A program made the position numbers and the translations under genes. The notes under the pieces are model-generated. The model did not search any database and was not told the DNA's origin. It worked only from the letters and a program-made list of their open reading frames with translations. A stretch of DNA of 48,211 nucleotides. It comes from Deltaproteobacteria bacterium. GTDB lineage: Bacteria > Myxococcota_A > UBA9160 > SMWR01. The stretch covers positions 1-48,211 of the forward strand of contig JAHEJV010000003.1 of the NCBI GenBank assembly GCA_024638705.1. Direction: 5' to 3'. This document shows, in pieces, positions 3,875-41,234 of the stretch. Each line of letters begins with the position of its first letter. The first letter of the stretch is position 1.

Positions 3875-5056
3875 TCACTCGGGATTCGGCTCCCGCCACA
3901 GGCGCCCGTCGTAGGACTCGACGATCACGTCGTCGCCCTCGCGCCCGCGCAGATAGGGATGGGCGAGCGGAACCTTGCCGTAGGGCGTGTCGAGCACGTA
4001 CTGGGGGATCGCGAAGCCGCTCGTGCGCCCCCGCATCTCCCGGAAGAGCGCGACGCCCTCCTCGATCGGAACGCGGAAATGCGCGGTTCCTTCGAGGAGT
4101 TGCGCCTGATACGTGTAGTAGGGCCTCACCCGGAGGCGGACGAGCTGCTCGCACAGCGCCTGCATCGTCGCGACGTCGTCGTTGATCCCGCGCAGCAGCA
4201 CGCTCTGGTTGCCGACCGGGATCCCGGCGTCGGCGAGCTTCGTCAGCGCTTCCTCCGCCTCGGCGGTGAGTTCGCGCGGATGGTTGAAGTGGGTGTTCAA
4301 CCAGATGGGGTGGAAGTCGCGGAGCATCCGACACAGGTCGTCGGTGACGCGGAAGGGCAGCGTCACGGGCAGGCGCGTGCCGAGGCGCACGATCTCGACG
4401 TGCGGAATGGCGCGCAGCTCGCCGATCAGCCAGGCGAGGCGGTCGTCGGAATAGACGAGGGGGTCGCCGCCGGTCAGCAGCACGTCGCGGATCGCCGGCG
4501 TCGCGCGGATCCAGTCGAGCGCCTCGCCGAGCTCGCGCTTCTTCATCGCCCACTCGGGCTCGCCCACCATCCGCTTGCGCAGACAGAAGCGGCAGTAGAG
4601 CGCGCACTCGTTGTTCACGCAGAAGGCGATCCGGTCGGGGTAGACGCGGATCACGTTCTTCACCGGCGAGTGCGCGACCTCGTCGAGGGGATCGGCGAGC
4701 CCGGCGGCGTCGTCGAGCTCGGCGATGTGGGGCACGACCTGGCGGCGGATCGGACACGCCGGATCGTCCGGGTCCATCAGGGCCGCGTAGTAGGGCGTGA
4801 TCACGAAGTGGAAGCGCGCGGCGAGCTTCGCGATGCCCTCGCGCTCTTTGGGGGTCGGGTCGAGAAAGTGCTCGAGGGCCTCGGCGGTGCGGATGCGGTG
4901 CTGCATCTGCCACGTCCAGTCCCGCCAGTCGACTTCGCTCGGCTGCGCCTCGCTGCGCGCGGCCTTCGGCGGCACGCTTTCGTGAACTTCGCTCGGCTTC
5001 GCCTCGCTGCGCGCGGCCTTCGGCCGCTTGCGGTCGCCGCCAGGGATGCCGGTCAT
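3875..5056 (-). CDS. kamA: KamA-family radical SAM aminomutase (lysine 2,3-aminomutase-like)
   Basis: C-terminal part of track ORF 3875..6199. It has DWRDWTWQMQHRI (compare clostridial KamA DWNDWRWQVRNRI, from memory). It has the radical-SAM cluster CALYCRFC, then VLLTGGDPL, PHVEIVRLGTR, WLNTHFNHP, GNQSVLLRG and VRPYYTYQ. The ATG at 5054-5056 overlaps the upstream gene's stop (ATGA). The start is uncertain: an in-frame GTG near 4977 is an alternative, because the first ~45 codons are made of repeat-element copies. Confidence 0.85.
   Translation of the reverse strand: MTGIPGGDRKRPKAARSEAKPSEVHESVPPKAARSEAQPSEVDWRDWTWQMQHRIRTAEALEHFLDPTPKEREGIAKLAARFHFVITPYYAALMDPDDPACPIRRQVVPHIAELDDAAGLADPLDEVAHSPVKNVIRVYPDRIAFCVNNECALYCRFCLRKRMVGEPEWAMKKRELGEALDWIRATPAIRDVLLTGGDPLVYSDDRLAWLIGELRAIPHVEIVRLGTRLPVTLPFRVTDDLCRMLRDFHPIWLNTHFNHPRELTAEAEEALTKLADAGIPVGNQSVLLRGINDDVATMQALCEQLVRLRVRPYYTYQAQLLEGTAHFRVPIEEGVALFREMRGRTSGFAIPQYVLDTPYGKVPLAHPYLRGREGDDVIVESYDGRLWREPNPE
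4928..5031 (-). repeat. two tandem copies (54-bp period) of the dispersed hairpin + GCGCGCAGCGAG element, inside the 5' end of the kamA ORF
   Basis: Minus strand reads GCAAGCGGCCGAAGGCCGCGCGCAGCGAGGCGAAGCCGAGCGAAGTTCACGAAAGC, then GTGCCGCCGAAGGCCGCGCGCAGCGAGGCGCAGCCGAGCGAAGTCGAC. Both align with the copies at 10045, 21397 and 41184. In the kamA frame they translate as KAARSEAKPSEV / KAARSEAQPSEV. Confidence 0.8.
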
Positions 5057-6138: not shown

Positions 6139-6636
6139 GTGCGCTCCCGCCCTGCTCCGAACGCCGCCGTCTCCGCGCCGTCGCGCGCACGGGTCGCATT
6201 CGCGTGGGGCGCCGTCGTCGCGTGGATCGCCCTCGTGTGGTGGCTCGGCAGCGGCGACTTCAACGCTACGACCACCTCGCGGATTCTCGACCCCCTGGTC
6301 CGTTGGCTGCTGCCCGACCTCCCGCCGGCCGACCGCTTCGCGCTGCTCGGCGCGATCCGCAAGCTCGCGCACCCGGTCGTCTACGGCGTGCTCGCCGGCC
6401 TCGCGTTCGCGGCTTCCCGCGTGTCGCGCTTCGATCCCCCCTGGCGGTCCGCGGCGGTCGCGTTCGTCCTCGCGCTCGCCACCGCCTCCTTCGACGAAGC
6501 GCGTCAGGCGCAGGTCGCCTCGCGCACCGGCGCGCTCGGCGACGTCGGCCTCGACGCCGCCGGCGCGATCGCCACGCTCGCCGTCGCCCTCTCGTGGACG
6601 CACCTGCGCCCTCGCCCCCCGCTCGAAGGAGGCTGA
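6139..6636 (+). CDS. VanZ-like family membrane protein
   Basis: 165-aa ORF with 4 hydrophobic segments. Shows the VanZ-like pattern IRKLAHPVVYGVLAGL ... SFDEARQAQVASRTGALGDVGLDAAGA (K-x-x-H, D-E-x-x-Q, R..D). Divergent from the ATP-grasp gene across a 48-bp spacer. Confidence 0.7.
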   Translation: MRSRPAPNAAVSAPSRARVAFAWGAVVAWIALVWWLGSGDFNATTTSRILDPLVRWLLPDLPPADRFALLGAIRKLAHPVVYGVLAGLAFAASRVSRFDPPWRSAAVAFVLALATASFDEARQAQVASRTGALGDVGLDAAGAIATLAVALSWTHLRPRPPLEGG

Positions 6637-6637
6637 A

Positions 6638-8287
6638 GTGTCCGACGCCCAGTCCCGCGGCCGGCTGCTCGACGCGGTCGAACGGATCGGCAACGCCCTG
6701 CCCGACCCGACGACGCTCTTCGCGATCGGCGCCGTGCTGGTGGCGGTGGCCGCGGAGATCGCCGTCGTCACCGACTGGACCGTGTCGCGGCCCGAGTCGC
6801 GCGCCGTCACCACCGCCGTGCTCGACGCCACCGGCGACCCGGTGCTCGGCGCGGACGGGTCGCCGGTCACGACGCCCGTGCTCGACGAGGCCGGGCGTCC
6901 GCGGATGGAGCGCGTCGATCGCGAGGTGCGCGCGAAGAGCCTCTTCTCGACCGACGGCGTCTACTGGATGCTCGCGAGCCTGGTCGACAACTTCGTCGCC
7001 TTCCCGCCTCTCGGCGTCGTGCTGGTGGGGATGCTCGGCATCGGGATGGCGGAGCGCACCGGCTTCATCGGTGCGTTGCTGCGCGCCGTGCTCGTCGCGG
7101 TGCCGCCGGGCCTCCTGACCCCGACCGTGTTCTTCGTGGGCGTGATGTCTTCGATGGGCCTCGACGCGGGTTATGTCGTCCTCCCACCCGTGGCGGCGGC
7201 GCTCTTCCAGGCGAGCGGACGCTCCCCGCTGGTCGGGCTGGCCGCCGTGTTCGCCGGCGTCTCCGCCGGATTCAGCGCGAACCTCTTCCCCACCAGCCTC
7301 GATCCGCTGCTCGGCGAGTTCTCGACCGCGAGCGCGCAGCTCCTCGATCCGGGCTACGAGGTCGCCGCCACCGCGAACCTGGGGTTCATGATCGCGTCGA
7401 CGTTCCTGCTCACCGTCGTCGGGTGGGCGGTGACGTCGCTCTGGGTGGAGCCGCGCTATGCGACGAAGTCGCCCGAGGACGGCGGCGCGAACCCGGACGG
7501 AGCCGATGCCGGCGCCATGACCCTGGCGCCGGAAGAGCGCAGCGCACTGGTGCGCGCCACCTGGGTCGCGGCGGCGGCGCTCGGCGTGGTGGCGCTCGCC
7601 ACCCTCGTCCCGGGCATGCCCCTGCACGGGATGGACGGGAAGTTTCCGCGCTGGGTGCGCGTGATCGTGCCGATCCTCTTCCTCGGCTTCCTGCTCCCGG
7701 GCCTCGTCTACGGATTCGCGATCGGGAAGCTCCAGAACGACCGCGACGTCGCGACGATCTTCGGCGAGACGATGGCCGGGATGGGTCCGTACATCGTGCT
7801 CGCGTTCTTCGCGGCCCAGTTCATCGCGTGGTTCGCGCACTCGAACCTCGGCGAGATGCTCGCGATCACCGGCGGTCGTCAGCTCGCGAGCGCCGGCTTG
7901 CCGCCGGCCGCCCTGATGGTCGGCTTCATCGTCGTGGTCGGGATCGGCAACCTCTTCATCGGTTCGATGTCGGCGAAGTACGCGTTCTTCGCCCCGGTGT
8001 TCGTGCCGATGTTCATGCAGGCCGGCATCAGCCCCGAGCTCACGCAGGTCGCCTATCGCGTGGGCGACTCGGTGACGAACGTGATCACCCCGCTCAATCC
8101 CTACGTCGTGATCATCCTCACCTTCATGCACCGCTACGTGCCGCGGGCGGGGATCGGAACGCTGGTCGCGCTGATGCTGCCCTACGCGGTGGCGTTCGGC
8201 CTGATCTGGAGCCTCATGCTGGCGGTCTGGGTCGGCCTCGGAATCCCGCTCTCCGGCGAGGGGCCGCTCTTCTACACCGCGCCCTGA
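6638..8287 (+). CDS. AbgT family transporter (aminobenzoyl-glutamate/dipeptide-like transporter family)
   Basis: C-terminal part of track ORF 6065..8287. GTG 6638 lies 1 nt after the VanZ stop and is preceded by GAAGGAGG. RLLDAVERIGNALPDPTTLFAIGAVLV, FAPVFVPMFMQAGISPELTQVAYRVGDSVTNVITPLNPY and LMLPYAVAFGLIWSLML resemble E. coli AbgT (ERIGNKVPHP, IFVPMFM, RIADSS; from memory). Confidence 0.85.
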   Translation: MSDAQSRGRLLDAVERIGNALPDPTTLFAIGAVLVAVAAEIAVVTDWTVSRPESRAVTTAVLDATGDPVLGADGSPVTTPVLDEAGRPRMERVDREVRAKSLFSTDGVYWMLASLVDNFVAFPPLGVVLVGMLGIGMAERTGFIGALLRAVLVAVPPGLLTPTVFFVGVMSSMGLDAGYVVLPPVAAALFQASGRSPLVGLAAVFAGVSAGFSANLFPTSLDPLLGEFSTASAQLLDPGYEVAATANLGFMIASTFLLTVVGWAVTSLWVEPRYATKSPEDGGANPDGADAGAMTLAPEERSALVRATWVAAAALGVVALATLVPGMPLHGMDGKFPRWVRVIVPILFLGFLLPGLVYGFAIGKLQNDRDVATIFGETMAGMGPYIVLAFFAAQFIAWFAHSNLGEMLAITGGRQLASAGLPPAALMVGFIVVVGIGNLFIGSMSAKYAFFAPVFVPMFMQAGISPELTQVAYRVGDSVTNVITPLNPYVVIILTFMHRYVPRAGIGTLVALMLPYAVAFGLIWSLMLAVWVGLGIPLSGEGPLFYTAP

Positions 8288-8402: not shown

Positions 8403-10055
8403 ATGTCCCAGAGCTTCGAAGAGGTCGCGCAGAACCTGACCGCGCCCGGCGCCCCGTTCGAGGTCGTGACCGAGACGGTGAACGACCGGCCGATGAAGGT
8501 GTTCAAGAACCGCGAGCGGTCGCTGCGCGAGAAGGTCGCCGCCGCGGCCGAGCGCGGCGACGTGCCCTTCATGGTGCAGGGCGACAACCGGGTTTCCTAC
8601 GGCGAGTTCGGCCAGCGCGCCTGGGGCGCGGCGCGCGCCCTCACCCACGACCACGGCCTCGCGAAGGGCGATCGCTTCGCGATCCTCTCCTACAACTGTC
8701 CCGAGTGGATCGTCGCGCTCTTCGGCGCCACCTCCGCCGGCGCGATCGGCGTCGGCCTCAACGGCTGGTGGGCCACCGAGGAGATCGAGTACGGCCTGAA
8801 CGACTCGGGCAGCCGCTTCCTCGTCGTCGACGCCCGTCTCTATCCGCGCGTCGAGCCGCTGCTCGGGAAGATCGAATCCCTCGAGAAGGTGTTCTTCATC
8901 GGCGACGACCCGCCCGAAGTCGCGATCGCAGAGGACGACCCCTTCGTCATCCTCTACACGTCCGGCACGACGGGTCGCTCGAAGGGCTGCATCACCACCC
9001 ACCGCGGCACGATCGCCCAGGTGACGGGCATCATGTTCTCGAACCTGGTCGGCGCCGCGACGTCGGGGCGCTCGCTGCTGCCCTCGGGAGGATCGCAACC
9101 CGCGGGCCTGTTCACCTCTCCGCTCTTCCACGTCGGCGGATTGCACTCGGTGGTGTGCACCCAGATGTCGATCGGCGCGAAGCTCGTGTTCAGCGCCGGA
9201 AAGTTCGACGCTGAAGAGTGCATGCGCCTCATCCAGGACGAGAGGATCTCGATCTGGAGCGCGATCCCGACGATGCTCCACCGCGTCGTCCATCATCCGA
9301 AGGTGGGCGACTACGACCTCTCGACGCTCAAGGGAATCTCCTTCGGCGGCGCGCCGACCGCGCCCGAGACGATCGACAAGGCGCGCGAGGTGCTGCCGAT
9401 CGAGCCGAGCTTCGCGAACGCCTACGGACTCACCGAGACCCACGGTGTCGCCACGGTGAACGGCGGCAAGGATCTGCTCGCGAAGAAGACGTCGGCGGGC
9501 CGACCGCTGCCGATCCTCGACGTGAAGATCGTCGACCCGGAAGGCAAGGAAGTGCCCGACGGCCAGCTCGGCGAGCTGGTGATCTACGGCCCGACGATCA
9601 CCCCCGGCTACTGGAACCGCCCGGACGCGACCGCCGAGACGGTCGTCGAAGGCTGGCTCCAGACCGGCGACCTCGGCTACCGCGACGCGGAAGGCTTCCT
9701 CTTCGTGGTCGACCGCGCGAAGGACATGATCCTGCGCGGCGGCGAGAACGTGTACTGCACCGAGATCGAGAACTGTCTCGCCGACCATCCCGAGATCGAC
9801 GAGGCGGCCGTCGTCGGCGTGCCCGACGCCGAGCTCGGCGAGCGCGTGAAGGCGATCGTGCGGCGCGTCCCCGGCTCGACGCTCTCCGACGCGGGCGTCC
9901 GCAAACACGTCGCCGCCCACATGGCGAGCTTCAAGGTGCCCGAGTTCGTCGAGTTCACCGACGAGCTGCTCCCGCGCAACGCGGCCGGGAAGCTGTTGAA
10001 GAACGCCCTGCGCGGAAAGGGCGCGGTGCCTTTCGACACGAAGAACCTGGGCTAG
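8403..10055 (+). CDS. AMP-dependent acyl-CoA synthetase/ligase (class I adenylate-forming enzyme)
   Basis: 550-aa ORF. Has the AMP-binding motif ILYTSGTTGRSKGC, then YGLTET, LQTGDLGYRDAEGFLFVVDRAKDMILRGGENVY and a C-terminal AAGKLLK. SD GGAGGA lies upstream of the ATG. Confidence 0.85.
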   Translation: MSQSFEEVAQNLTAPGAPFEVVTETVNDRPMKVFKNRERSLREKVAAAAERGDVPFMVQGDNRVSYGEFGQRAWGAARALTHDHGLAKGDRFAILSYNCPEWIVALFGATSAGAIGVGLNGWWATEEIEYGLNDSGSRFLVVDARLYPRVEPLLGKIESLEKVFFIGDDPPEVAIAEDDPFVILYTSGTTGRSKGCITTHRGTIAQVTGIMFSNLVGAATSGRSLLPSGGSQPAGLFTSPLFHVGGLHSVVCTQMSIGAKLVFSAGKFDAEECMRLIQDERISIWSAIPTMLHRVVHHPKVGDYDLSTLKGISFGGAPTAPETIDKAREVLPIEPSFANAYGLTETHGVATVNGGKDLLAKKTSAGRPLPILDVKIVDPEGKEVPDGQLGELVIYGPTITPGYWNRPDATAETVVEGWLQTGDLGYRDAEGFLFVVDRAKDMILRGGENVYCTEIENCLADHPEIDEAAVVGVPDAELGERVKAIVRRVPGSTLSDAGVRKHVAAHMASFKVPEFVEFTDELLPRNAAGKLLKNALRGKGAVPFDTKNLG

Positions 10056-10211
10056 CAAGCCGGTGGAACCGGCGCGCAGCGAGCCGCAGGGCGAGCGTAG
10101 TCTCGGGTCGGGCGAGCCGGTGGAACCGGCGCGCAGCGAGCCGCAGGGCGAGCGTAGTCTCGGGTCGGGCAAGCCGGTGGAACCGGCGCGCAGCGAGCCG
10201 CAGGCGAGCGT
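10045..10211 (+). repeat. three tandem copies (57-bp period) of the dispersed hairpin + GCGCGCAGCGAG element
   Basis: GCAAGCCGGTGGAACCGGCGCGCAGCGAGCCGCAGGGCGAGCGTAGTCTCGGGTCGG occurs at 10045, again at 10102 (GCGAGC variant), and as a third copy at 10159 ending ...GCAGGCGAGCGTAGTCGAAAGG. The array starts 1 nt inside the TAG stop of the ligase gene (10053-10055) and fills most of the gap to cstA. Track ORF 10063..10290 is an artefact of these repeats. Confidence 0.9.
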
Positions 10212-10286
10212 AGTCGAAAGGCGCCCTCCGACGACCGACGCGAACCGACCTTCCCTCAGGCGCACCGCGCCCCCCCGAGGCAACCC

Positions 10287-19277: not shown

Positions 19278-21395
19278 ATGACCGATCGTATCACACGCGC
19301 GCACGCAGACCGGCGCGGCGTGTACGAGCCGAGGGAGTCCGGCGTGCAGCGATCGATCGGCGCAATCCTGGCGATGGTGGCGCTCTGCTTCGCCAGCGCA
19401 GCGATGGCCGAAGCGCCCAGCATCGCGCTCCCCGGGCTGCCGCGTATCGGGAGCTCCGCCGCCGACGCGAAGGGCGTCGTCTTCTTCCTGAAGACCGGCT
19501 TGAAGCACGGCGCGGTGGCGGTCGGCACGAGCCACACCCTTTCGCTCGACGACCTCGCCCGCGCGGGCCGCGTGGAGTTCGCCCTGCCCCGCTCGCTCGA
19601 TCGCGTCACGTGGTCGGAACGTTTCGCGGTGAAGCCCGGACGGCCGTTCAGTCTGGTCGGCGCGACGATGCGGGACGACTACCTCGCCTTCCAGCTCTCC
19701 AGCGCGCCGCGCGGCGTGCGTCTGCTCGAAGCGCTTCCCGACGCGAAGCTCACCGCGGGAACGCGCGTGCGAATGATCGGCCCCGGCGACCGCGGCGGAC
19801 GCGAGGAGCAACACGCCTTCGGCACGATCGTCGCCGCGACCGCCGACCGGCTGGAGATCGACCTCGACCTCTCCCAGCGTCTGGTCGGATGGGGGGGCGC
19901 CCCGGTTCTGCTGTCGGAGGACGAGCGCGTGGTCGGGATCGTCGAAGCCGCCGTCCCCGGAGCCGACGTCACGCGCGTGCTCGCGGCGCCGATCGACGGC
20001 GTGCTCGAGGCGCTCGTCAGCCCGCTCGACGAGGGCTCCGGGCGCGCCTTCGCCGCCTTCGCGAGCCGCGACGCGGTGATCGAGTCCGAGGAGCCGGCGA
20101 TCGTGGCCGACGACGACCGCCGCCCACTGATCGAGGCGGCCGCCGGCGATGCCACGAAGCTCGAGCTCGACATCGAGTATCCCCCGGACGGCGCGGAAGT
20201 CGCATCGACCGTGTGCGGCGCCTTCGTGGCGGGCCGCGCCCAGGCGACGCGCGGCGCGCCACGCCGTTTCGACGTCGTCCTCGTGATCGACACGTCGCGC
20301 TCGACGGTCGACAGCGCCGGCACGGACGTGAACGGCAACGGCGTGATCGGAGAATCCCGGCTCGGCACGGTCGGCGCGCTCTTCGGCGCGGGACTCACCG
20401 ATCCCGGCGATTCGATCCTCGCTGCTGAAGTCGCGGCCGCGCGTCAGGTGCTGCTGGGCCTCGACCCGCGCAGCACCCGCGTCGGGCTCGTGGCCTTCGC
20501 GGGCGAAGCCGTCAGCAGCGGCGGTCGCTATTCGCGGCGTCGCCCCGCCTACACCGTGGAAGGCCTCACCGCCGACTACACCCTGATCGAACGCGCCCTC
20601 GACGACCTGCTCGAGACCGAACCGAAGGGCCAGACCCACATGGCGGCGGGCATCGATCAGGCCACGATCGAGTTGAACGGCCTACGCGGTTCCTACTCGA
20701 AGGCCGACGCGAAGAGCGAGAAGGTGGTGTTCTTCTTCACGGACGGGCAGCCAACCCTCCCCTATGGCCCCGACGCCGAGGCCGACAACGTGCGCGCCGT
20801 CCTCCGCGCCGCGAATCGCGCGCACCGCGGCAACGTGCGCATCCACTCGTTCGCGATCGGACCGGAGGCCCTCGAGGGTCCGATCGCCGCGGTGGAGATG
20901 GCGAGCCGCACGCGCGGCTACTTCACGCCGGTGCGCAATCCGGGCGATCTCGTCGACATCGTCGAAGAAGTCAGCTTCGCGGACATCGAGAGCGTCAAGC
21001 TCGCGCACGTCGGAAGCGGCCGCGAGGCGCGGCCTTTCCGCATCACCGCCGATGGATCCTGGGCCGGCTTCCTCGAGCTCGACCCCGGCGAGAACGTGGT
21101 GTCGGTCGAAGCGAAGGCCGACGGCGGGGCCGAAGAGCGGCGCGAGCTGCGCCTGTCGGCCGTCGAGGATCCGAAGGACGAGCCCGAGCTTCCCGTCGAG
21201 CTCGTCGTCCAACGCAACCGCCTGCTCGAGGACTGCCTGATCATCGCGAAGCAGCTCCGTCTCGATCGCGAGCGCGAGCGCAACGAGGAGATCCGCCGCC
21301 AGCTCCAGCTCGAGATCGAACGCGAACGCCGCCGCGCCCGCGAGCGCGCCGACCAGCAGCGGAAGTCGCTCGACCTCGAGGCGGATGTGGACTAG
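19278..21395 (+). CDS. VWA domain-containing protein with N-terminal trypsin-like (apparently inactive) domain and C-terminal coiled coil
   Basis: C-terminal 705 codons of track ORF 18888..21395. ATG 19278 is preceded by GGGGGGAGGA. It has a signal/anchor (IGAILAMVALCFASAAMA). The MIDAS-type motif is VLVIDTSRST, followed by VVFFFTDGQPT. The C-terminus is charged heptads RLDRERERNEEIRRQLQLEIERERRRARERADQQRK. Confidence 0.75.
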   Translation: MTDRITRAHADRRGVYEPRESGVQRSIGAILAMVALCFASAAMAEAPSIALPGLPRIGSSAADAKGVVFFLKTGLKHGAVAVGTSHTLSLDDLARAGRVEFALPRSLDRVTWSERFAVKPGRPFSLVGATMRDDYLAFQLSSAPRGVRLLEALPDAKLTAGTRVRMIGPGDRGGREEQHAFGTIVAATADRLEIDLDLSQRLVGWGGAPVLLSEDERVVGIVEAAVPGADVTRVLAAPIDGVLEALVSPLDEGSGRAFAAFASRDAVIESEEPAIVADDDRRPLIEAAAGDATKLELDIEYPPDGAEVASTVCGAFVAGRAQATRGAPRRFDVVLVIDTSRSTVDSAGTDVNGNGVIGESRLGTVGALFGAGLTDPGDSILAAEVAAARQVLLGLDPRSTRVGLVAFAGEAVSSGGRYSRRRPAYTVEGLTADYTLIERALDDLLETEPKGQTHMAAGIDQATIELNGLRGSYSKADAKSEKVVFFFTDGQPTLPYGPDAEADNVRAVLRAANRAHRGNVRIHSFAIGPEALEGPIAAVEMASRTRGYFTPVRNPGDLVDIVEEVSFADIESVKLAHVGSGREARPFRITADGSWAGFLELDPGENVVSVEAKADGGAEERRELRLSAVEDPKDEPELPVELVVQRNRLLEDCLIIAKQLRLDRERERNEEIRRQLQLEIERERRRARERADQQRKSLDLEADVD

Positions 21396-21396
21396 C

Positions 21397-21453
21397 GCAA
21401 GCAGGCCTCCGAGGCCTGCGCGCAGCGAGGGGAAGCCGAGCGAAGTCGAAAGG
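21397..21453 (+). repeat. single copy of the dispersed hairpin + GCGCGCAGCGAG element
   Basis: GCAAGCAGGCCTCCGAGGCCTGCGCGCAGCGAGGGGAAGCCGAGCGAAGTCGAAAGG. It starts 1 nt after the TAG (21393-21395) of the VWA gene, separated only by C at 21396. The 8-bp stem is GCAGGCCT/AGGCCTGC. Confidence 0.85.
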
Positions 21454-21535
21454 ATGCATCCGCGCCCCGCGGAGACTCCCGTCCCCAGAATCGTCGAGCC
21501 CGTTCCCGATGAGGACACCGGGAGCCCGTTTCCGC

Positions 21536-22321
21536 TCAGTCTCCCACGTGCTCCGCGCTCGGATCGATCCCGAGCCAGCGCGACAGGTAGTGCACACCGA
21601 GGTAGAACGGTCCCGTGTCGAGCAGCGCCACGACCACCTTGAACACGTAGCCCGACCCGATGTAGACCCAGAGCTGCGACCACAGCTCCCGATCCGGATC
21701 GATGGGCAGGCCCTTCGCATAGAAGTGCGTGATCGTGATGACGGCGAAGGTGTCGACGAACTGGCTGACCACGGTCGAGCCGTTGTTGCGCAACCAGAGA
21801 TGTCGCCCGCGCGTCAGCCGTTTCCAGAAATGGAAGAGGAAGACGTCGCAGAGCTGGGCCGCGAGATACGCCACCATCGATGCGACGACCGCGCCCATCG
21901 TGAGCATGCGGATCCGGTAGAACGCGAAGTCGTAGGCGTCGCTCGGCGGAAGCCCCGTGACCGGATCGAGCTCGACCGCCGGCGGGAGCGCGCCGCCCAG
22001 CCACAGGAAGCCGGCCACCCACAGGTTGAGCATCAACCCCACCCACACCACCGCGCTCGCGCGCGCGCGACCGTAGAGCTCGCTGATGAAGTCGGTGCAG
22101 AGGAAGGTGATCGGATAGGGCAGCACGCCGACGGCCAGCGCCATCGGGATGCGCATGCCGCCCACCTCGAACGAGAGGTCGATGAAGCGCGACACCCCGA
22201 GGATGTTGAGCATCGTCATCGAGCCGAGGAACAACCCGGCGAGAACGAGGAACACCCGCTCGCGCCGCGCGTGGATCACGGACGCCTCGATCGGGTGCAA
22301 GTCCGTCACGGCCCGGAACAT
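21536..22321 (-). CDS. yhhQ: queuosine precursor transporter (YhhQ/VUT, DUF165 family)
   Basis: 261-aa ORF. GVLPYPITFLCTDFISELYG, FYRIRMLTMGAVVASMVAYLAAQLCDVFLFHFWK, WLRNNGSTVVSQFVDTFAV. Confidence 0.85.
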   Translation of the reverse strand: MFRAVTDLHPIEASVIHARRERVFLVLAGLFLGSMTMLNILGVSRFIDLSFEVGGMRIPMALAVGVLPYPITFLCTDFISELYGRARASAVVWVGLMLNLWVAGFLWLGGALPPAVELDPVTGLPPSDAYDFAFYRIRMLTMGAVVASMVAYLAAQLCDVFLFHFWKRLTRGRHLWLRNNGSTVVSQFVDTFAVITITHFYAKGLPIDPDRELWSQLWVYIGSGYVFKVVVALLDTGPFYLGVHYLSRWLGIDPSAEHVGD

Positions 22322-28732: not shown

Positions 28733-28752
28733 GGCCGCGCGCAGCGTGCGGG
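28733..28752 (+). repeat. short fragment resembling the core of the dispersed element
   Basis: GGCCGCGCGCAGCGTGCGGG shares 14 consecutive nt (GGCCGCGCGCAGCG) with the kamA-locus copies. It fills the 21-nt convergent gap between the kinase-like gene stop and the rpoZ stop. Confidence 0.4.
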
Positions 28753-29059: not shown

Positions 29060-29089
29060 TCCTCGGACCCGTAAAGGCCGATTCAGCGG

Positions 29090-29392
29090 CTACCGCTTCT
29101 TGCGGCGAGCCTTCTTTCGCGTGGCCTTCTTGCGAGTGGCCTTCTTCCGGCGAGCCTTCTTGCGGGTCGCCTTCTTGCGAGTGGCCTTCTTCTTCCGGCG
29201 AGCCTTCTTACGGGTCGCCTTCTTGCGAGTGGCCTTCTTGCGTCGGGCCTTCTTCTTCGTGGCCTTCTTGCGAGTGGCCTTCTTGCGGGTGGCCTTCTTG
29301 CGTCGCGCCTTCTTGCGAGTGGCCTTCTTGCGAGTGGCCTTCTTCCTGCGCGTGGCCTTCTTGCGAGAGGCCTTCTTTCTTCGAGCTGCCAT
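29090..29392 (-). CDS. histone H1-like lysine/arginine repeat protein (100 aa)
   Basis: Inner ATG of track ORF 29090..29434. Sequence is MAARRKKASRKKATRRKKATRKKATRKKARRKKATRKK.... After Met it uses only K, R, A, T and S. This frame uses preferred AAG/GCC/CGC codons, whereas the other two frames (RRPLARR, AFFRVAFL) use rare codons. The DNA is a 21/24-nt tandem repeat over ~29093-29389. Confidence 0.7.
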   Translation of the reverse strand: MAARRKKASRKKATRRKKATRKKATRKKARRKKATRKKATRKKATKKKARRKKATRKKATRKKARRKKKATRKKATRKKARRKKATRKKATRKKARRKKR

Positions 29393-29894
29393 ACTTGGGT
29401 CACCCCCCTGTTCGGTTTGCTCTCGTTGTCCCACGGGCCGTGTGCTCTTCGCCGGTTCGGAGACGAATCTCCTCGCTGATGGTGAACCTACAGCCAGTCG
29501 GTCTGCCCCCTATCGGAGTCCCTCACACGACACTGAAGGCAATCTGCCCTCGTTCTGTCCATAAACCGCGGGCCTAGAGCAACTCTTGCAGATCAGGCTA
29601 CCAGCCCTGTTTCGAGGCCGTCAACCCACAAGCGCAAAAAAATCAACACCATGCAGATCCTAGCTGCGGGCCGGGAACCAAACATGGGCCCAACTCGACC
29701 GGAAGAAACGGAGGGAAGTCGGGCCCCGGGTCTTCGCAGCATTCGGTCGAACCCGGTGTGCGGGCGCGGGGAAAAGCATTGGTGAAGAGTTGACTTGGAA
29801 CGGCCGAGCGACTAACCACTGGCTCGGCGGGCACGGTCGTGTCGCCGGTGGCAATCCGCAGCCTGCTCTGCTCTGTTCCGTTCTGGGAGATTCC

Positions 29895-30564: not shown

Positions 30565-30870
30565 AGTGGTGAAATCACTTCGGTCGATCCGCGGCGATTC
30601 TTCAATCGGAATCGCGTCCCGACCCTCTTCCACCGGCAGAAGATCGGCAGGGATGGACGCGAAGATGCGGCGATCGCTGGGCGACGAAACGATCCGGCTT
30701 TCCGGCGGCCGGTTCTCTCGGGTCGCCGAACTCGGGGGCTCGACCGCCACCCTTCCGCAACGCCCGGATGGATCGCGCCCACCCCCGCGCGTCGTTCGCG
30801 GTCGCGCTACGCGCGTACACCCAGCCCTCTTCGCTGAGAGCCCCGGGTATCCGCCCGCCGTGGTGCCGGC

Positions 30871-30918
30871 GAGCGCGAATTCGGCGCGTGCGCAGCGAGG
30901 CGAGAGAGGCGCGGAATC
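30871..30918 (+). repeat. degenerate copy of the dispersed element
   Basis: GAGCGCGAATTCGGCGCGTGCGCAGCGAGGCGAGAGAGGCGCGGAATCG. It shares GCGCAGCGAGGCGA (14 nt) with the kamA-locus copies and is preceded by a GC-rich imperfect hairpin around an AATT loop. Its orientation is opposite to the flanking minus-strand genes. Confidence 0.4.
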
Positions 30919-30976
30919 GGACACGACCGGTTTTGCCGAGGCGAAACCCGCGGAGCGACCGGATCCCCGTCGGAAG

Positions 30977-38444: not shown

Positions 38445-39797
38445 CTAGCGCCCGAACCGCTGGTCGATCTGTCGCTGCATCTCGTCCCGCACGGTCTGAT
38501 AGGACGCGGGCAGCTCGATCGGAGGGTTCGGCAGCTGCGACTCGATGCCTTCGAGCTGCATCTCGTGGTAGCGCACCTTGAAGTCGACGAACTTGAGCCC
38601 GTGGGCCGTCGAGATCGTCACGACGCGGTCGCTCTTCTGGATGACGCCCTGACGCACCAGCTTCTCGGTGGCGGCGAGAGCCACGCCGGTGTGCGGGCAG
38701 TTGAACAGGCCCGTGCGGTCGGCGCGCGCGCACGACTCGGCGATCTCCGCCTCGCTCGCCTGCTCGACGATGCCGTCGTAGCGCTTGAGCGCATCGATCG
38801 CCTTGTCGATCGATACCGGGTTCCCGATCTGGATCGCGTTGGCCAACGTCGGTCGCGCGGAGATCGGCTCGAAGACCTCGAAATCGCGCTGGTAGGAGAG
38901 ATAGAGGGGGTTCGCGGCCTCGGCCTGGGCGCAGACGATGCGCGGCACCCGGTCGATCAGGCCGAGGTCGCGCAGCATGTCGAGGCCCTTCGCGAGCGCC
39001 GAGACGTTTCCGAGATTCCCGCCTGGAATCACCATCCAGTCGGGCACCTCCCAGTCGAACTGCTCGACGATCTCGATGCCGACGGTCTTCTGCCCCTCGA
39101 TCCGCAGGCTGTTCATCGAGTTCGCGAGGTAGATCCCGTCGCGCAACGAGATCTCCTTCACGATCTCCATGCAGCCGTCGAAGTCGGTGTCGAGGGCGAA
39201 CACGATCGCGCCGTTCGCCACGGGCTGGATCAGCTGCGCTACCGACACCTTCCCGCGCGGCAGGAAGACCACCGCCGGGATCGCCGCCGCCGCCGCGTAG
39301 GCCGCGAGCGCCGCCGAAGTATCGCCCGTGGACGCACACGCCACCGCCGGGATGTCCACGCCGCGCCGACGCATGTCGTTCACCTGGGAGACGAGCACGG
39401 TCATCCCGAGGTCCTTGAAGGAGCCGGTGTGGGAGTTGCCGCACTGTTTGATCCAGAAGTCGTCGATCCCGATCTCCCGGCCGTAGCGATCGGCCCAGAA
39501 GAGGTTCGTATGTCCCTCGTACATCGAGACCGCATGCTCGTTGTCGATGCCGGGCAGCACCCATTCCTTCTTGCCCCACACGCCGGAGCCGTAGGGCCAT
39601 TCACTCGAATGCGTGCGCGAGGCGAACAGGCGCTTCCACTCCTCGGCGGGGGTCTTGCGCAGCTCGTCCATGTCGTGGGCGACTTCGAGCAGCGACCCGT
39701 CGCGAGCGGTATAGACCACCTCGTCGAGGGGATAGGTCTCGTCGTGGTCTTTGATGCTGCGGAACCACGCGCGATGGCTGGGTTTCGGATCGGGCAT
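38445..39797 (-). CDS. thrC: threonine synthase
   Basis: 450-aa ORF. NPTGSFKD-type PLP site ([12 protein letters not shown]), [25 protein letters not shown]. The stop lies 3 nt before the ribE ATG. Confidence 0.92.
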
Positions 39798-41128
39798 CAG
39801 AGCCCCTCCTCGATGCGGACGAGCCGCGTCGGTGCCGTGACGTCGGGCAGTGCGTCGATGCGTTCGAGCGCTGCGCGCAACGCCGATTCCTGCGCCGGGT
39901 GGGTGAGCACGAGCACCGGGACGGAGTCGCCTTCGCCGCCGCGCCCCTTCTGGATCACCGACTCGATGCCGATCCCGTGCTCGCCGAGCGCGCCGGCGAT
40001 GTGACCGAGGACGCCGGCGCGATCGAGCGCGGTGAAGCGAAGATAGGCGCGTCCCGAGATCTCGCCGAGCGGCACGAGCGGCACGGGTCGCAGCGCGTCG
40101 GGCAGGTAGGAGAGCGGCGCGACGCGCCCGGCGCCGCCGCGGTCGATCTCCCGCGCGATCTCCACGAGGTCGGCCACGACCGCGCTCGCCGTCGGCAGCT
40201 CGCCCGCACCGGCGCCGTAGAAGAGCGTCGGCCCCACGGCGTCGCCCGTGACCGCCACCGCGTTCATCGCGCCGTCGACGCTCGCGAGCAGGCTCGACTT
40301 CGGGATCAGCGTGGGATGCACGCGCGCCTCGATCCGCTCGGCACCGCCCGCATCGACATGGCTCTTAGCGATGCCGAGCAGCTTGATCCGGTAGCCGAAC
40401 TCGTCGGCGGCTTCGAAATCGACGGGCGCGAGACCGCTGATCCCCTCGGTGGGAATCTCCTTGAAGGTCAACTCGGCGCCGAACGCCATCGCCGCGAGCA
40501 GCGTGAGCTTGTGCGCCGCGTCGACGCCCTCGAGGTCGAAGGTCGGATCCGCCTCGGCATAGCCCAGGTCTTGCGCGCGCTTCACGACCACTTCCTGCGC
40601 CTCGCCCGTCGACTCCATCTGGGTGAGCACGTAGTTCGTGGTGCCGTTCATGATGCCGTGCAGGCTCTCGATGCGGTTGGCCACGAGGCCCTCGCGGATC
40701 GAGCGCAGGATCGGGATGCCGCCGGCCACGCTCGCCTCGAAGCCGACGTCGACCCCCGCGCGCTGGGCGGCGCCGAAGATCTCCGCGCCGTGCAGCGCGA
40801 GCAGCGCCTTGTTCGCCGTCACGACGTGCTTCCCGGCCGCGATCGCCGCGAGCGTGTAGCGCTTCGCGATGTCGTAGCCGCCGATCAGCTCGATCACGAT
40901 CGACACGTCGGGGTCGGCGATCAGACCGTCCGCGTCGGAGTCGAAGCGCACGCTCGAGAGATCGACGCCGCGATCCGTCTCGGTGTCGAGGTCGGCCACG
41001 CGCACGACGCGCAGCGGGAAGCCGAGCCGCTGCTCGATCACCGCGGCGTTGCGCTGCAACACCTTGACGACCCCCGTGCCGATCGTCCCCAGACCGATCA
41101 GTCCGATTCCGATTCCGCGCTCAGCCAC
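39797..41128 (-). CDS. hom: homoserine dehydrogenase
   Basis: Track ORF 39797..41158. The preferred start is GTG 41128 ([20 protein letters not shown], with AAGGAA 8 nt upstream). [10 protein letters not shown], the catalytic region, and a C-terminal ACT domain ([30 protein letters not shown]). The stop overlaps the thrC ATG (TGATG). Confidence 0.9.
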
Positions 41129-41183
41129 GACTCGATTCCTTCGACATGTTGATCTCACCTGTTCGGACGACGGCGGAGGCCAC

Positions 41184-41234
41184 TGTTCGACTTCGCTCGA
41201 CTGCGCCTCGCTGCGCGCCGGCCAGCCGGCTTGC
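41184..41234 (-). repeat. single copy of the dispersed hairpin + GCGCGCAGCGAG element between the aminotransferase gene and hom
   Basis: Minus strand reads TAG-A-GCAAGCCGGCTGGCCGGCGCGCAGCGAGGCGCAGTCGAGCGAAGTCGAACAG. The GCAAGC starts 1 nt after the aminotransferase TAG (41236-41238). Confidence 0.85.

Follow-up and report, generated by a model that had tools for sequence, protein, structure and literature searches.

A dispersed family of hairpin repeats at gene ends in Myxococcota genomes, compared with REP and MIRU elements

Introduction

Two described systems of short bacterial repeats stand closest to the element treated here: the repetitive extragenic palindromic sequences (REPs; Di Nocera 2013, PMC3733652; Nunvar 2010, PMC2817692), with the REP doublets forming hairpins (REPINs) and bacterial interspersed mosaic elements (BIMEs) (Bertels and Rainey 2011, PMC3116915), and the interspersed repetitive units of mycobacteria (MIRUs; Supply et al. 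1997, as summarised in PMC3184786 and PMC12548453). The element itself is a unit of 46–60 bp, built of a hairpin of variable sequence and a conserved flank. It occurs seven times, at four loci, in a 48,211-nt stretch of a Deltaproteobacteria genome (contig JAHEJV010000003.1 of assembly GCA_024638705.1), which was analysed whole and is called the window below, and in at least 160 copies in about 100 contigs of metagenome-assembled genomes (MAGs) labelled Myxococcota or "Deltaproteobacteria".

REPs are defined by a GTAG or CGTC tag at the stem. They lie between unidirectional and convergent open reading frames (ORFs), near the 3' end of the upstream one; they exhibit complementary stem variants and self-complementary loop expansions, can supply stop codons to their neighbours, and have intragenic copies that are often N-terminal (PMC3733652). 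Proximity to the upstream stop was taken by Di Nocera et al. (PMC3733652) as a sign of transcription and of an RNA function. MIRUs, on the other hand, are units of 40–100 bp that form head-to-tail arrays at dispersed intergenic sites of operons, and their frames overlap the neighbouring stop and start codons at −4 with little effect on expression (PMC3184786, PMC12548453).

An earlier reading of the window, made from its letters alone (the sequence-only reading), had proposed a family of variable but always-pairing hairpins anchored at gene ends, to be understood either as a 3'-untranslated-region (3'-UTR) RNA element or as a non-autonomous mobile element, and had set it apart from classical REPs. 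The analysis reported here favours, with a probability of about 0.6, an interspersed DNA repeat that is short and non-autonomous, belongs to an uncultured lineage of Myxococcota, and combines a REP-like module with a MIRU-like organisation. This reading is carried by insertion polymorphism between orthologous sites, anchoring at stop codons in both orientations, in-frame insertions at ORF termini, Watson-Crick covariation and head-to-tail arrays.

Extent of the family

The pattern GCGCAGCGAG-N6-9-CGAGCGWAGT matches seven times in the window and not once in 100 dinucleotide-preserving shuffles of it. When genome contigs were scanned with such a pattern, each species being represented by one genome, more than 112 stretches matched; of those listed, most are in MAGs labelled Myxococcota, Deltaproteobacteria or Myxococcales and some in bins labelled Spirochaetales. 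As about nine chance matches are expected by our own estimate for a database of that size, isolated matches in other phyla carry no meaning alone. A covariance model, as recommended in the sequence-only reading, was built from 32 family members and run on the window and the related loci; it recovers the seven window units with scores of 51–74 bits, where the next-best match reaches 16 bits, and gives 162 matches in 718 kb.

Rfam holds no match for the window array at the gathering threshold or at E-values up to 10, nor for seven related loci at the gathering threshold. Likewise, searches for the core sequences and for repeat elements of myxobacteria found no description of this hairpin repeat, nor of any REP-like or MIRU-like element in Myxococcota, in the searchable literature, whose coverage is incomplete.

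Unit structure and covariation

From the 132 copies dissected, the following order of parts emerges: GCAA, a first palindrome (H1), GCGCAGCGAG, a mini-hairpin (H2), CGAGCGRAGT and, last, a tail (YCAWCRGRMC) that is semi-conserved, measures about 10 nt and is extended in sub-families (e.g., CGAACAGTGGCCTCCG). H1 is a perfect palindrome of 2–12 bp, whose outer GC...GC is fixed while its inner 0 to about 10 bp are free to vary; in 42 copies it is reduced to the minimal GC-GAA-GC. H2 occupies a 7-nt spacer flanked by GCGA and GAGC, and reads CCGNAGG (68 copies), GCGNAGC (about 40) or CGGCACG (2). Of 109 H1 hairpins, 70 have a GNA triloop closed by a C:G pair, as have nearly all H2 hairpins. The hairpin is thus flanked by GCAA and GCGCAGCGAG on the top strand, and by CTCGCTGCGC and TTGC on the bottom strand. 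A total of 32 model matches that fall outside the scan pattern still carry CGCGCAGCGAG...GAGCG(G/A)AG, so that conservation of the flank is no artefact of selection by pattern.

The central structural claim of the sequence-only reading, that stems differ between loci and yet pair perfectly, is borne out across the family. Watson-Crick H1 stems of at least 5 bp are present in 59 of 130 copies (45%), compared with 1.4% at 5000 random positions. In a model-guided alignment of 150 copies, 97.3% of the cells are standard pairs (73.5% in shuffles), and double-sided changes amount to 205 cells against 63.5 in shuffles, a value reached in none of 500 shuffles and in no slid register. The alignment was fitted to the covariance model and its cells are not independent events; nevertheless, the 63 H1 stems of at least 4 bp include 44 distinct combinations of arms and loop, which shows that changes arose many times separately.

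The two tail "half-repeats" of the sequence-only reading are better read as the two sides of the second hairpin (H2). Predicted folds suggest an extended H2 of the form GC-GA-[stem-GNA-stem]-GA-GC, in which G(S)C GNA G(S)C would be framed by tandem G.A mismatches; because those positions are invariant, we infer the extended form from the folds.

Some sub-families depart from this plan. In one of them (loci L010, L022, L025 and L065), the conserved block GCGCTGGCCGCGCC recurs about 40 nt downstream of ...AAGTCGAACAGTGGCCTCCG, and in another (e.g., L017, L027, L067, L100 and L103) AAGT is followed by a second hairpin (GCGGGTGG plus a GC-rich palindrome), so that at least some sub-families are composite elements of at least 110 nt. 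In a third (L133 at 2684–2732 on the minus strand, L008, L036, L039, L102 and L104), GCAA is replaced by (C)TAGGAGGCCGAC..., and the H1 arms hold a Shine-Dalgarno-like GGAGG (5') and CCTCC (3'). The L133 copy takes up exactly the gap that separates two convergent stop codons and has CTAG at either end.

A different repeat was noticed in four further loci (L049 at 7221–7287, plus strand, and 7430–7497, minus strand; L030; L041; L083), the MAG labels of three of which are Eremiobacterota, Coriobacteriales and Bacteroidota. It reads GTCATCCTGAGCG...GCGCAGCGAG-[mini-hairpin]-CGAGCGWAGTCGAAGGA and has a GCGAG-hairpin-CGAGCGAAGT core in common with the Myxococcota element, set within a covarying outer stem (ATCCT/AGGAT, TTCT/AGAA, GTCT/AGAC); the two copies in L049 form an inverted pair about 140 nt apart. 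Both repeats may belong to a cross-phylum superfamily, or may have converged on GNA mini-hairpins. A hammerhead-like reading of CUGA...GAG-hairpin-CGA in these repeats was discarded, as the GAA core is missing on inspection; Rfam gave no match.

Filled and empty orthologous sites

Since orthologous junctions lack them, the units are insertions, and the search for filled and empty sites recommended in the sequence-only reading gave both kinds. A metagenome scan with the AMP-binding (acyl-CoA synthetase) protein upstream of the three-unit array retrieved 69 orthologous loci at 64–83% identity. At this acs-cstA junction, most orthologues have only 3–20 nt between the stop codon and the GTG of cstA (e.g., TAGaggcgctccGTG); in the window the junction measures 231 nt and opens with three units directly at the same TAG. 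One of the orthologues (L159) carries a copy directly after the TGA of the same gene (TGA-c-GCAAGC...), where its relative L123 reads TGAgacgATG. In both, stop codon and C-terminus are ancestral, and the element thus brings no stop of its own there.

The second case lies within a coding region. In four orthologues of the KamA-like radical-SAM gene (L137, L131, L135 and L115), the ATG or GTG start overlaps the upstream stop, and 8–16 codons precede the conserved DWxDWTWQMQHR. The window gene (3875–5056) retains the same GCGCGATGA overlap, followed by 7 codons, by exactly 108 nt (2 × 54) of repeat in frame, and then by DWRDWTWQMQHR. The insertion thus adds 36 codons between the conserved ATGA start overlap (5056–5053) and the conserved DWRDWTWQMQHR motif, in the N-terminal coding region.

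The genome loci provided five more comparisons between orthologues. One gene end (...SFRKR*) is common to L098 and L106; in L098 it is followed by TAG-cg and an element in sense orientation with minimal H1, in L106 by TAG and an element in antisense orientation whose H1 measures 8 bp. One stop codon has received two independent insertions, in opposite orientations. The entire spacer of two convergent stops in L110 consists of the element (TGA|element|c|TCA); L004, the empty counterpart, has about 430 nt there. L038 is filled and L010 empty at a TAG/TAA stop, and L067 is filled and L106 empty 2–4 nt past a TGA. At a second site shared by L010 and L038, the former is filled and the latter empty: the upstream ORF of L010 runs on across the element, using the ARSE... 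frame, and keeps an ATGA overlap with the next gene at its end, and that of L038 has a different C-terminal tail and ends in an equivalent GTGA overlap.

Position relative to genes

Among 75 classified arrays, 25 are in sense and 18 in antisense orientation between co-directional genes, 24 lie between convergent genes and only 8 in divergent spacers. A further 20 arrays overlap called ORFs, 14 of them in sense, which brings the ratio of sense to antisense to 39:24. Copies inside genes, about 20 of 130, form a minority and occur at ORF termini only. Counted by the gene upstream of the copy, orientation is the same in 58 cases and opposite in 35. The sense orientation behind the upstream gene described in the sequence-only reading thus holds for all four clear loci of the window, and dwindles to a weak bias family-wide; one orthologous stop codon carries the element in opposite orientations in two lineages.

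Anchoring at gene ends, by contrast, stands in both orientations. Against a null model of insertion points uniform over element-free spacers, a sense stop lies at −1 to +2 nt from GCAA in 16 of 58 copies (null 0.036; P ~2e-10), and the stop of a convergent gene lies at −1 to +9 nt from ...AAGT in 23 of 54 (null 0.093; P ~1e-10). In either orientation, the element end that faces the incoming gene adjoins the stop codon of that gene; distances to downstream start codons are broad. The stops adjoining GCAA are TAG in 11 copies, TGA in 3 and TAA in 2, against a background of 363 TGA, 231 TAG and 40 TAA, TAG accounting for 36% of the stop codons in L001–L112 and the window.

The genomes in question are very compact. 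In the same set of loci the median spacer is 19 nt, for co-directional and convergent pairs alike, and at least 25% of both kinds of pairs overlap by 4 nt (ATGA or GTGA start-stop overlaps, and shared YTAR stops in convergent pairs). Part of the precision at stop codons consequently comes from the survival of some insertions and not others. Random insertion weighted by length, with selection afterwards, does not account for the pattern, however. The right end of the element consensus includes TCA (50 of 128 copies), so some convergent ORFs end in a stop supplied by the element, as noted for GTAG REPs by Di Nocera et al. (PMC3733652).

Two copies in L069 (2199–2251 and 6512–6563, both minus) end 2–3 nt upstream of the 5' ends of two tRNA-Ser genes (2109–2196 and 6420–6509, both on the minus strand), in sense orientation, which indicates that the element can abut tRNA 5' ends too. 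Stop-codon read-through or recoding by a hairpin after TAG, similar to the pyrrolysine and selenocysteine insertion sequences (PYLIS, SECIS), was considered and rejected: the phase between stop and element differs between loci, TGA and TAA occur there as well as TAG, and orthologues show the stops to be ancestral.

Arrays and termini

Neighbouring copies are arranged head-to-tail in 29 pairs and inverted in one. Of 22 distinct array periods, 15 are multiples of 3 (P ~9e-4), which fits the in-frame copies of the KamA-like gene and of L010. Terminal inverted repeats were not found, the two ends resembling direct repeats instead (GCAAGCGAAGC and GCGAGCGAAGT), and no target-site duplication was detected, flank k-mer matches being equal to those of permuted controls for k = 3–6.

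Copies in the window

The four clear loci listed by the sequence-only reading hold with small corrections of coordinates (Table 1). Its start of the three-unit array at 10045 was 10 nt too early; the array spans 10055–10222, with unit starts at 10055, 10112 and 10169, and Tandem Repeats Finder calls the 57-bp array at 10055–10215 with 97% matches. The two-unit array runs from 5031 to 4924. As for the degenerate copies proposed, that at 30871–30918 gains weak support as a possible remnant of a decayed copy (30869–30925), and that at 28733–28752 finds no support, being only a 12-mer with one mismatch, of which 18 matches are seen and about 6 expected.

Also confirmed is the position of GCAAGC at TAG codons in three loci, 1 nt inside the stop or 1 nt past it. 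The first G of the three-unit array is the G of the TAG (10053–10055) of the AMP-binding gene, and the single units begin 1 nt past the TAG of a VWA-domain gene (21393–21395) and of an aminotransferase gene (41238–41236). The former single unit lies between convergent genes, with a Vut_1 gene at 21536–22321 on the minus strand, and the latter upstream of a homoserine dehydrogenase gene (39797–41128). All genes flanking the units are ordinary housekeeping genes: AMP-binding, CstA, ATP-grasp, radical-SAM/LAM, VWA, Vut_1, aminotransferase and homoserine dehydrogenase.

Table 1. Repeat units and related features of the window.
Feature	Positions	Strand	Score (bits)	Remarks
Unit 1 of three-unit head-to-tail array	10055–10111	+	56.8	GCAA, H1 GCCGGT-GGA-ACCGGC (10059–10073), core 10074–10101; period 57 bp
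Unit 2 of three-unit array	10112–10168	+	51.4	GCGA replaces GCAA; 98% identity to unit 1
Unit 3 of three-unit array	10169–10222	+	70.8	H2 CCGCAGG (1 nt shorter); tail CGAAAGGC
Extra spacer, about 64 nt, from three-unit array to GTG start of cstA (10287)	10223–10286	+		Orthologues: 3–20 nt in total
Unit 1 of two-unit array	4978–5031	−	74.2	H1 GCGGCC-GAA-GGCCGC
Unit 2 of two-unit array	4924–4977	−	59	Period 54 bp
Single unit	21397–21454	+	59.3	H1 GCAGGCCT-CCG-AGGCCTGC
Single unit	41182–41234	−	67.5	H1 GCCGG-CTGG-CCGGC; tail CGAACAGTGGCCTCCG
Candidate decayed copy	30869–30925	+	14	E ~0.02 (rough calibration)

The extra spacer in front of cstA is without counterpart in orthologues and may be co-inserted sequence; its first 11 nt (AGGCGCCCTCC) are similar to the ancestral spacer of L121 (AGGCGCTCC).

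Elsewhere in the window, positions 29096–29377 hold a tandem repeat of 15 nt (also 45 nt) in about 18 copies, with consensus CTTCTTGCGGCGGGC and a lower GC content (63%). The gene caller made no call there; the ORF at 29083–29403 reads RRPLA repeats, and on the minus strand a frame rich in GC at third codon positions would give A-R-R-K-K pentapeptide repeats. The region could code for a basic, histone-like repeat protein.

Comparison with described repeat systems

Both REPs and the Myxococcota element are short GC-rich stem-loops with an unpaired conserved flank and many dispersed copies, and both form sub-families with complementary stem changes and self-complementary hairpin expansions. Both are located between unidirectional or convergent genes at the upstream 3' end and are rare in divergent spacers; their ends abut stop codons or provide them, and part of the copies are intragenic, often at the N-terminus. 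As published REPs already show complementary stem variants, contiguity with stops and intragenic copies (PMC3733652), the contrast with classical REPs drawn in the sequence-only reading was overstated. Real differences remain, nevertheless. The Myxococcota element is devoid of the defining GTAG or CGTC tag (PMC3733652) and holds a conserved, non-palindromic 3' module of at least 27 nt with a second mini-hairpin. Its adjacent copies are arranged 29:1 head-to-tail, whereas inverted dimers dominate in REPs and head-to-tail pairs are rare. No REP-associated tyrosine transposase (RAYT) was detected by phmmer in 1.09 Mb of loci, which is a weak test.

The organisation of the family is closer to that of MIRUs. 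Both consist of GC-rich units of 40–100 bp in head-to-tail arrays at dispersed intergenic operon sites of a high-GC genome, and both are known from filled and empty orthologous sites. At two loci of the Myxococcota element, 5031–4924 and L010, the unit frame also shows the overlap with neighbouring stops and starts at −4 that is described for MIRUs. Unlike MIRUs, many copies of the Myxococcota element lie in antisense orientation or between convergent genes (18 and 24 arrays). Its variable but perfect palindrome and its GNA mini-hairpins are not described as MIRU features, and the tetranucleotide direct repeats reported at filled MIRU sites were not found. The host belongs to another phylum, and the two are compared here by their descriptions.

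Other systems share single traits. Rickettsia palindromic elements (RPEs), like intragenic REPs, are palindromic repeats in frame in coding genes and tolerated as extra peptide; RPEs, however, are longer and mostly intragenic, while the Myxococcota element is intragenic in a minority of copies and only at ORF termini. Elements of the IS200/IS605 type also have hairpins with conserved single-stranded flanks and are free of terminal inverted repeats and target-site duplications. In the Myxococcota element, however, no specific tetranucleotide target and no replication-strand bias are observed, no Y1 transposase was found by the same phmmer search, and the hairpin sequence is far more variable than is usual for the cognate hairpin of a single transposase. 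Integron attC sites likewise conserve structure over sequence directly 3' of stop codons; the Myxococcota element differs by the lack of R''/R' core sites, integrase and cassette context, and by its occurrence in both orientations and in tandem arrays. From DDE-type miniature inverted-repeat transposable elements (MITEs) it differs by having neither terminal inverted repeats nor target-site duplications.

Favoured reading and alternatives

According to the favoured reading, the hairpins would act as single-stranded DNA structures, and the conserved non-palindromic flank would be recognised in trans by an enzyme encoded elsewhere, which may be HUH/Y1-like or another enzyme acting on single-stranded DNA. 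In these very compact genomes an insertion would survive only if it leaves the stop codon in place, the reading frame unbroken and the −4 coupling of start and stop intact. Inserted units would be co-transcribed, and a GC-rich hairpin 4–6 nt past the stop probably also influences how stable the mRNA 3' end is or how translation terminates, be it as a side effect or as a secondary benefit. Units do multiply locally, giving head-to-tail arrays with periods that are mostly multiples of 3, and at overlapping neighbouring genes they lie in frame in the first or last codons of the ORF.

Several points weigh against this reading. Replication strands, assigned by GC skew, are occupied without bias (47:50), unlike those of IS200/IS605 elements. 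The search for a Y1 transposase or RAYT (phmmer, run on every ORF of 80 aa or more from 182 sequences, with IS200 TnpA and Escherichia coli RayT as seeds) gave no match in 1.09 Mb, a weak test on a small sample. When genes within 2.5 kb of elements were clustered, only large metabolic families recurred. The filled and empty pairs compare lineages above the strain level, and thus speak to insertion rather than to recent mobility. A host function could equally explain two traits, the strand specificity of the GNA loops and the conservation of the flank in many MAGs. Finally, the loci were chosen by an exact pattern, and gene positions rest on our own simple codon-log-odds caller, trained on the loci, whose calls at the window loci agree with Pfam.

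The first alternative, which appears unlikely, is a cis-acting RNA element of the host, kept by selection in 3' UTRs or intercistronic regions for mRNA protection, termination or control of translation termination, with the tail as a protein-binding site. The geometry of the window speaks for it, with all four loci in sense and the hairpin beginning 4–6 nt past the stop or start region, as does the contact with the upstream stop at variable distance from the downstream start. Predicted minimum-free-energy RNA folds include both H1 and H2. E. coli REPs within 15 nt of a stop codon reportedly stall ribosomes (Liang, Rudd and Deutscher 2015), which offers an analogy.

Other evidence, however, points to pairing at the level of DNA. 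RNA helices usually tolerate wobble pairs preferentially; here wobble pairs (8 of 1088 cells) are fewer than other mismatches (29), which suggests DNA-level pairing. The minimal H1, GC-GAA-GC, is reported to be an exceptionally stable DNA mini-hairpin (Hirao et al.; Yoshizawa et al. 1997). Folded singly, as RNA or as DNA, units do no better in energy than shuffles (z −1.2 to +0.2; the non-significant z-scores set against the RNA alternative are −0.5 to −1.2), so structural support comes from covariation and not from folding energy. No U-tract follows the hairpin at the window loci, and Rfam gave no match. The tail is non-palindromic, and its orientation relative to transcription is nevertheless only weakly biased; one stop codon is occupied in both orientations in two lineages, and some copies lie in frame inside ORFs. 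Taken together, the near-pure Watson-Crick pairing, the GNA triloops, the weak orientation bias and the lack of excess fold energy suggest that the hairpins pair as DNA. Of the two options left by the sequence-only reading, the inserted-DNA side is therefore upheld and the RNA side disfavoured.

In a bolder version of the favoured reading, which must be considered doubtful, the family would form a new class of mobile elements of single-stranded DNA, homing to stop codons at their 3' edge whichever the orientation. They would rely on extra-stable GNA-triloop DNA mini-hairpins, the conserved 27-nt flank and an enzyme other than a RAYT or an IS200-type transposase, and would be built to be neutral to translation, with open frames and multiple-of-3 array periods. 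Such elements could then colonise genomes in which a quarter of the gene pairs share a 4-nt overlap, supplying new peptide segments to the ends of proteins.

Less probable than either is a MIRU-type coupling element, whose open frame would link the upstream stop to the downstream start and keep the translational coupling of operons, as described for MIRUs (PMC12548453, PMC3184786). The head-to-tail arrays and multiple-of-3 periods agree with it, as do the ARSE(A/P)(K/Q)xSEV frame that is open in all window units, the preserved ATGA overlaps at the KamA-like N-terminus and the L010 C-terminus, and the frame through the three-unit array, which ends in a TGA overlapping the GTG of cstA. This last GTGA, however, is ancestral and present in element-free orthologues. 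Furthermore, 24 arrays lie between convergent genes and 18 in antisense, about nine copies have an in-frame TAG in H2 (CCGTAGG or GCGTAGC), and 7 of 22 periods are not multiples of 3.

A DDE-transposase MITE (e.g., of the IS5 type) that targets and duplicates CTAG or YTAR, and so would hit TAG stops in a genome of 70% GC, is highly improbable. CTAG does precede the element at each of the three window loci next to a stop, and in 10 of 15 stop-adjacent copies in all; it follows the tail in nine copies and occurs on either side of the L133 element, which lies between convergent stops. Moreover, no fewer than 25% of the convergent gene pairs have a YTAR stop overlap in common. Insertions directly after TGA and TAA are also found, however, no transposase was found in the window or the loci, and the absence of target-site duplications (k = 3–6, against permuted flanks) and of terminal inverted repeats, the ends resembling direct repeats, largely refutes this possibility. 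Integron attC-like sites marking the 3' ends of gene cassettes share the conserved structure, variable sequence and place behind stop codons, but are effectively ruled out by a consensus without RYYYAAC or GTTRRRY cores, by housekeeping flanking genes in conserved synteny and without an integrase among those of the window, and by copies in both orientations, inside ORFs and in tandem arrays.

Implications

The family is previously undescribed but not categorically new, since most of its surprising behaviours have precedents. It adds a well-defined repeat family to the Myxococcota, and unites traits usually divided between REPs (the hairpin and its conserved flank next to stop codons) and MIRUs (head-to-tail arrays, preservation of frame and start/stop coupling). 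Insertions in opposite orientations at one stop codon, together with nucleotide-exact abutment, turn gene-end targeting into a testable question. For the annotation of MAGs, the units create spurious or extended ORFs; they are likely to serve as markers of the variable-number tandem repeat (VNTR) type, and may break assemblies.

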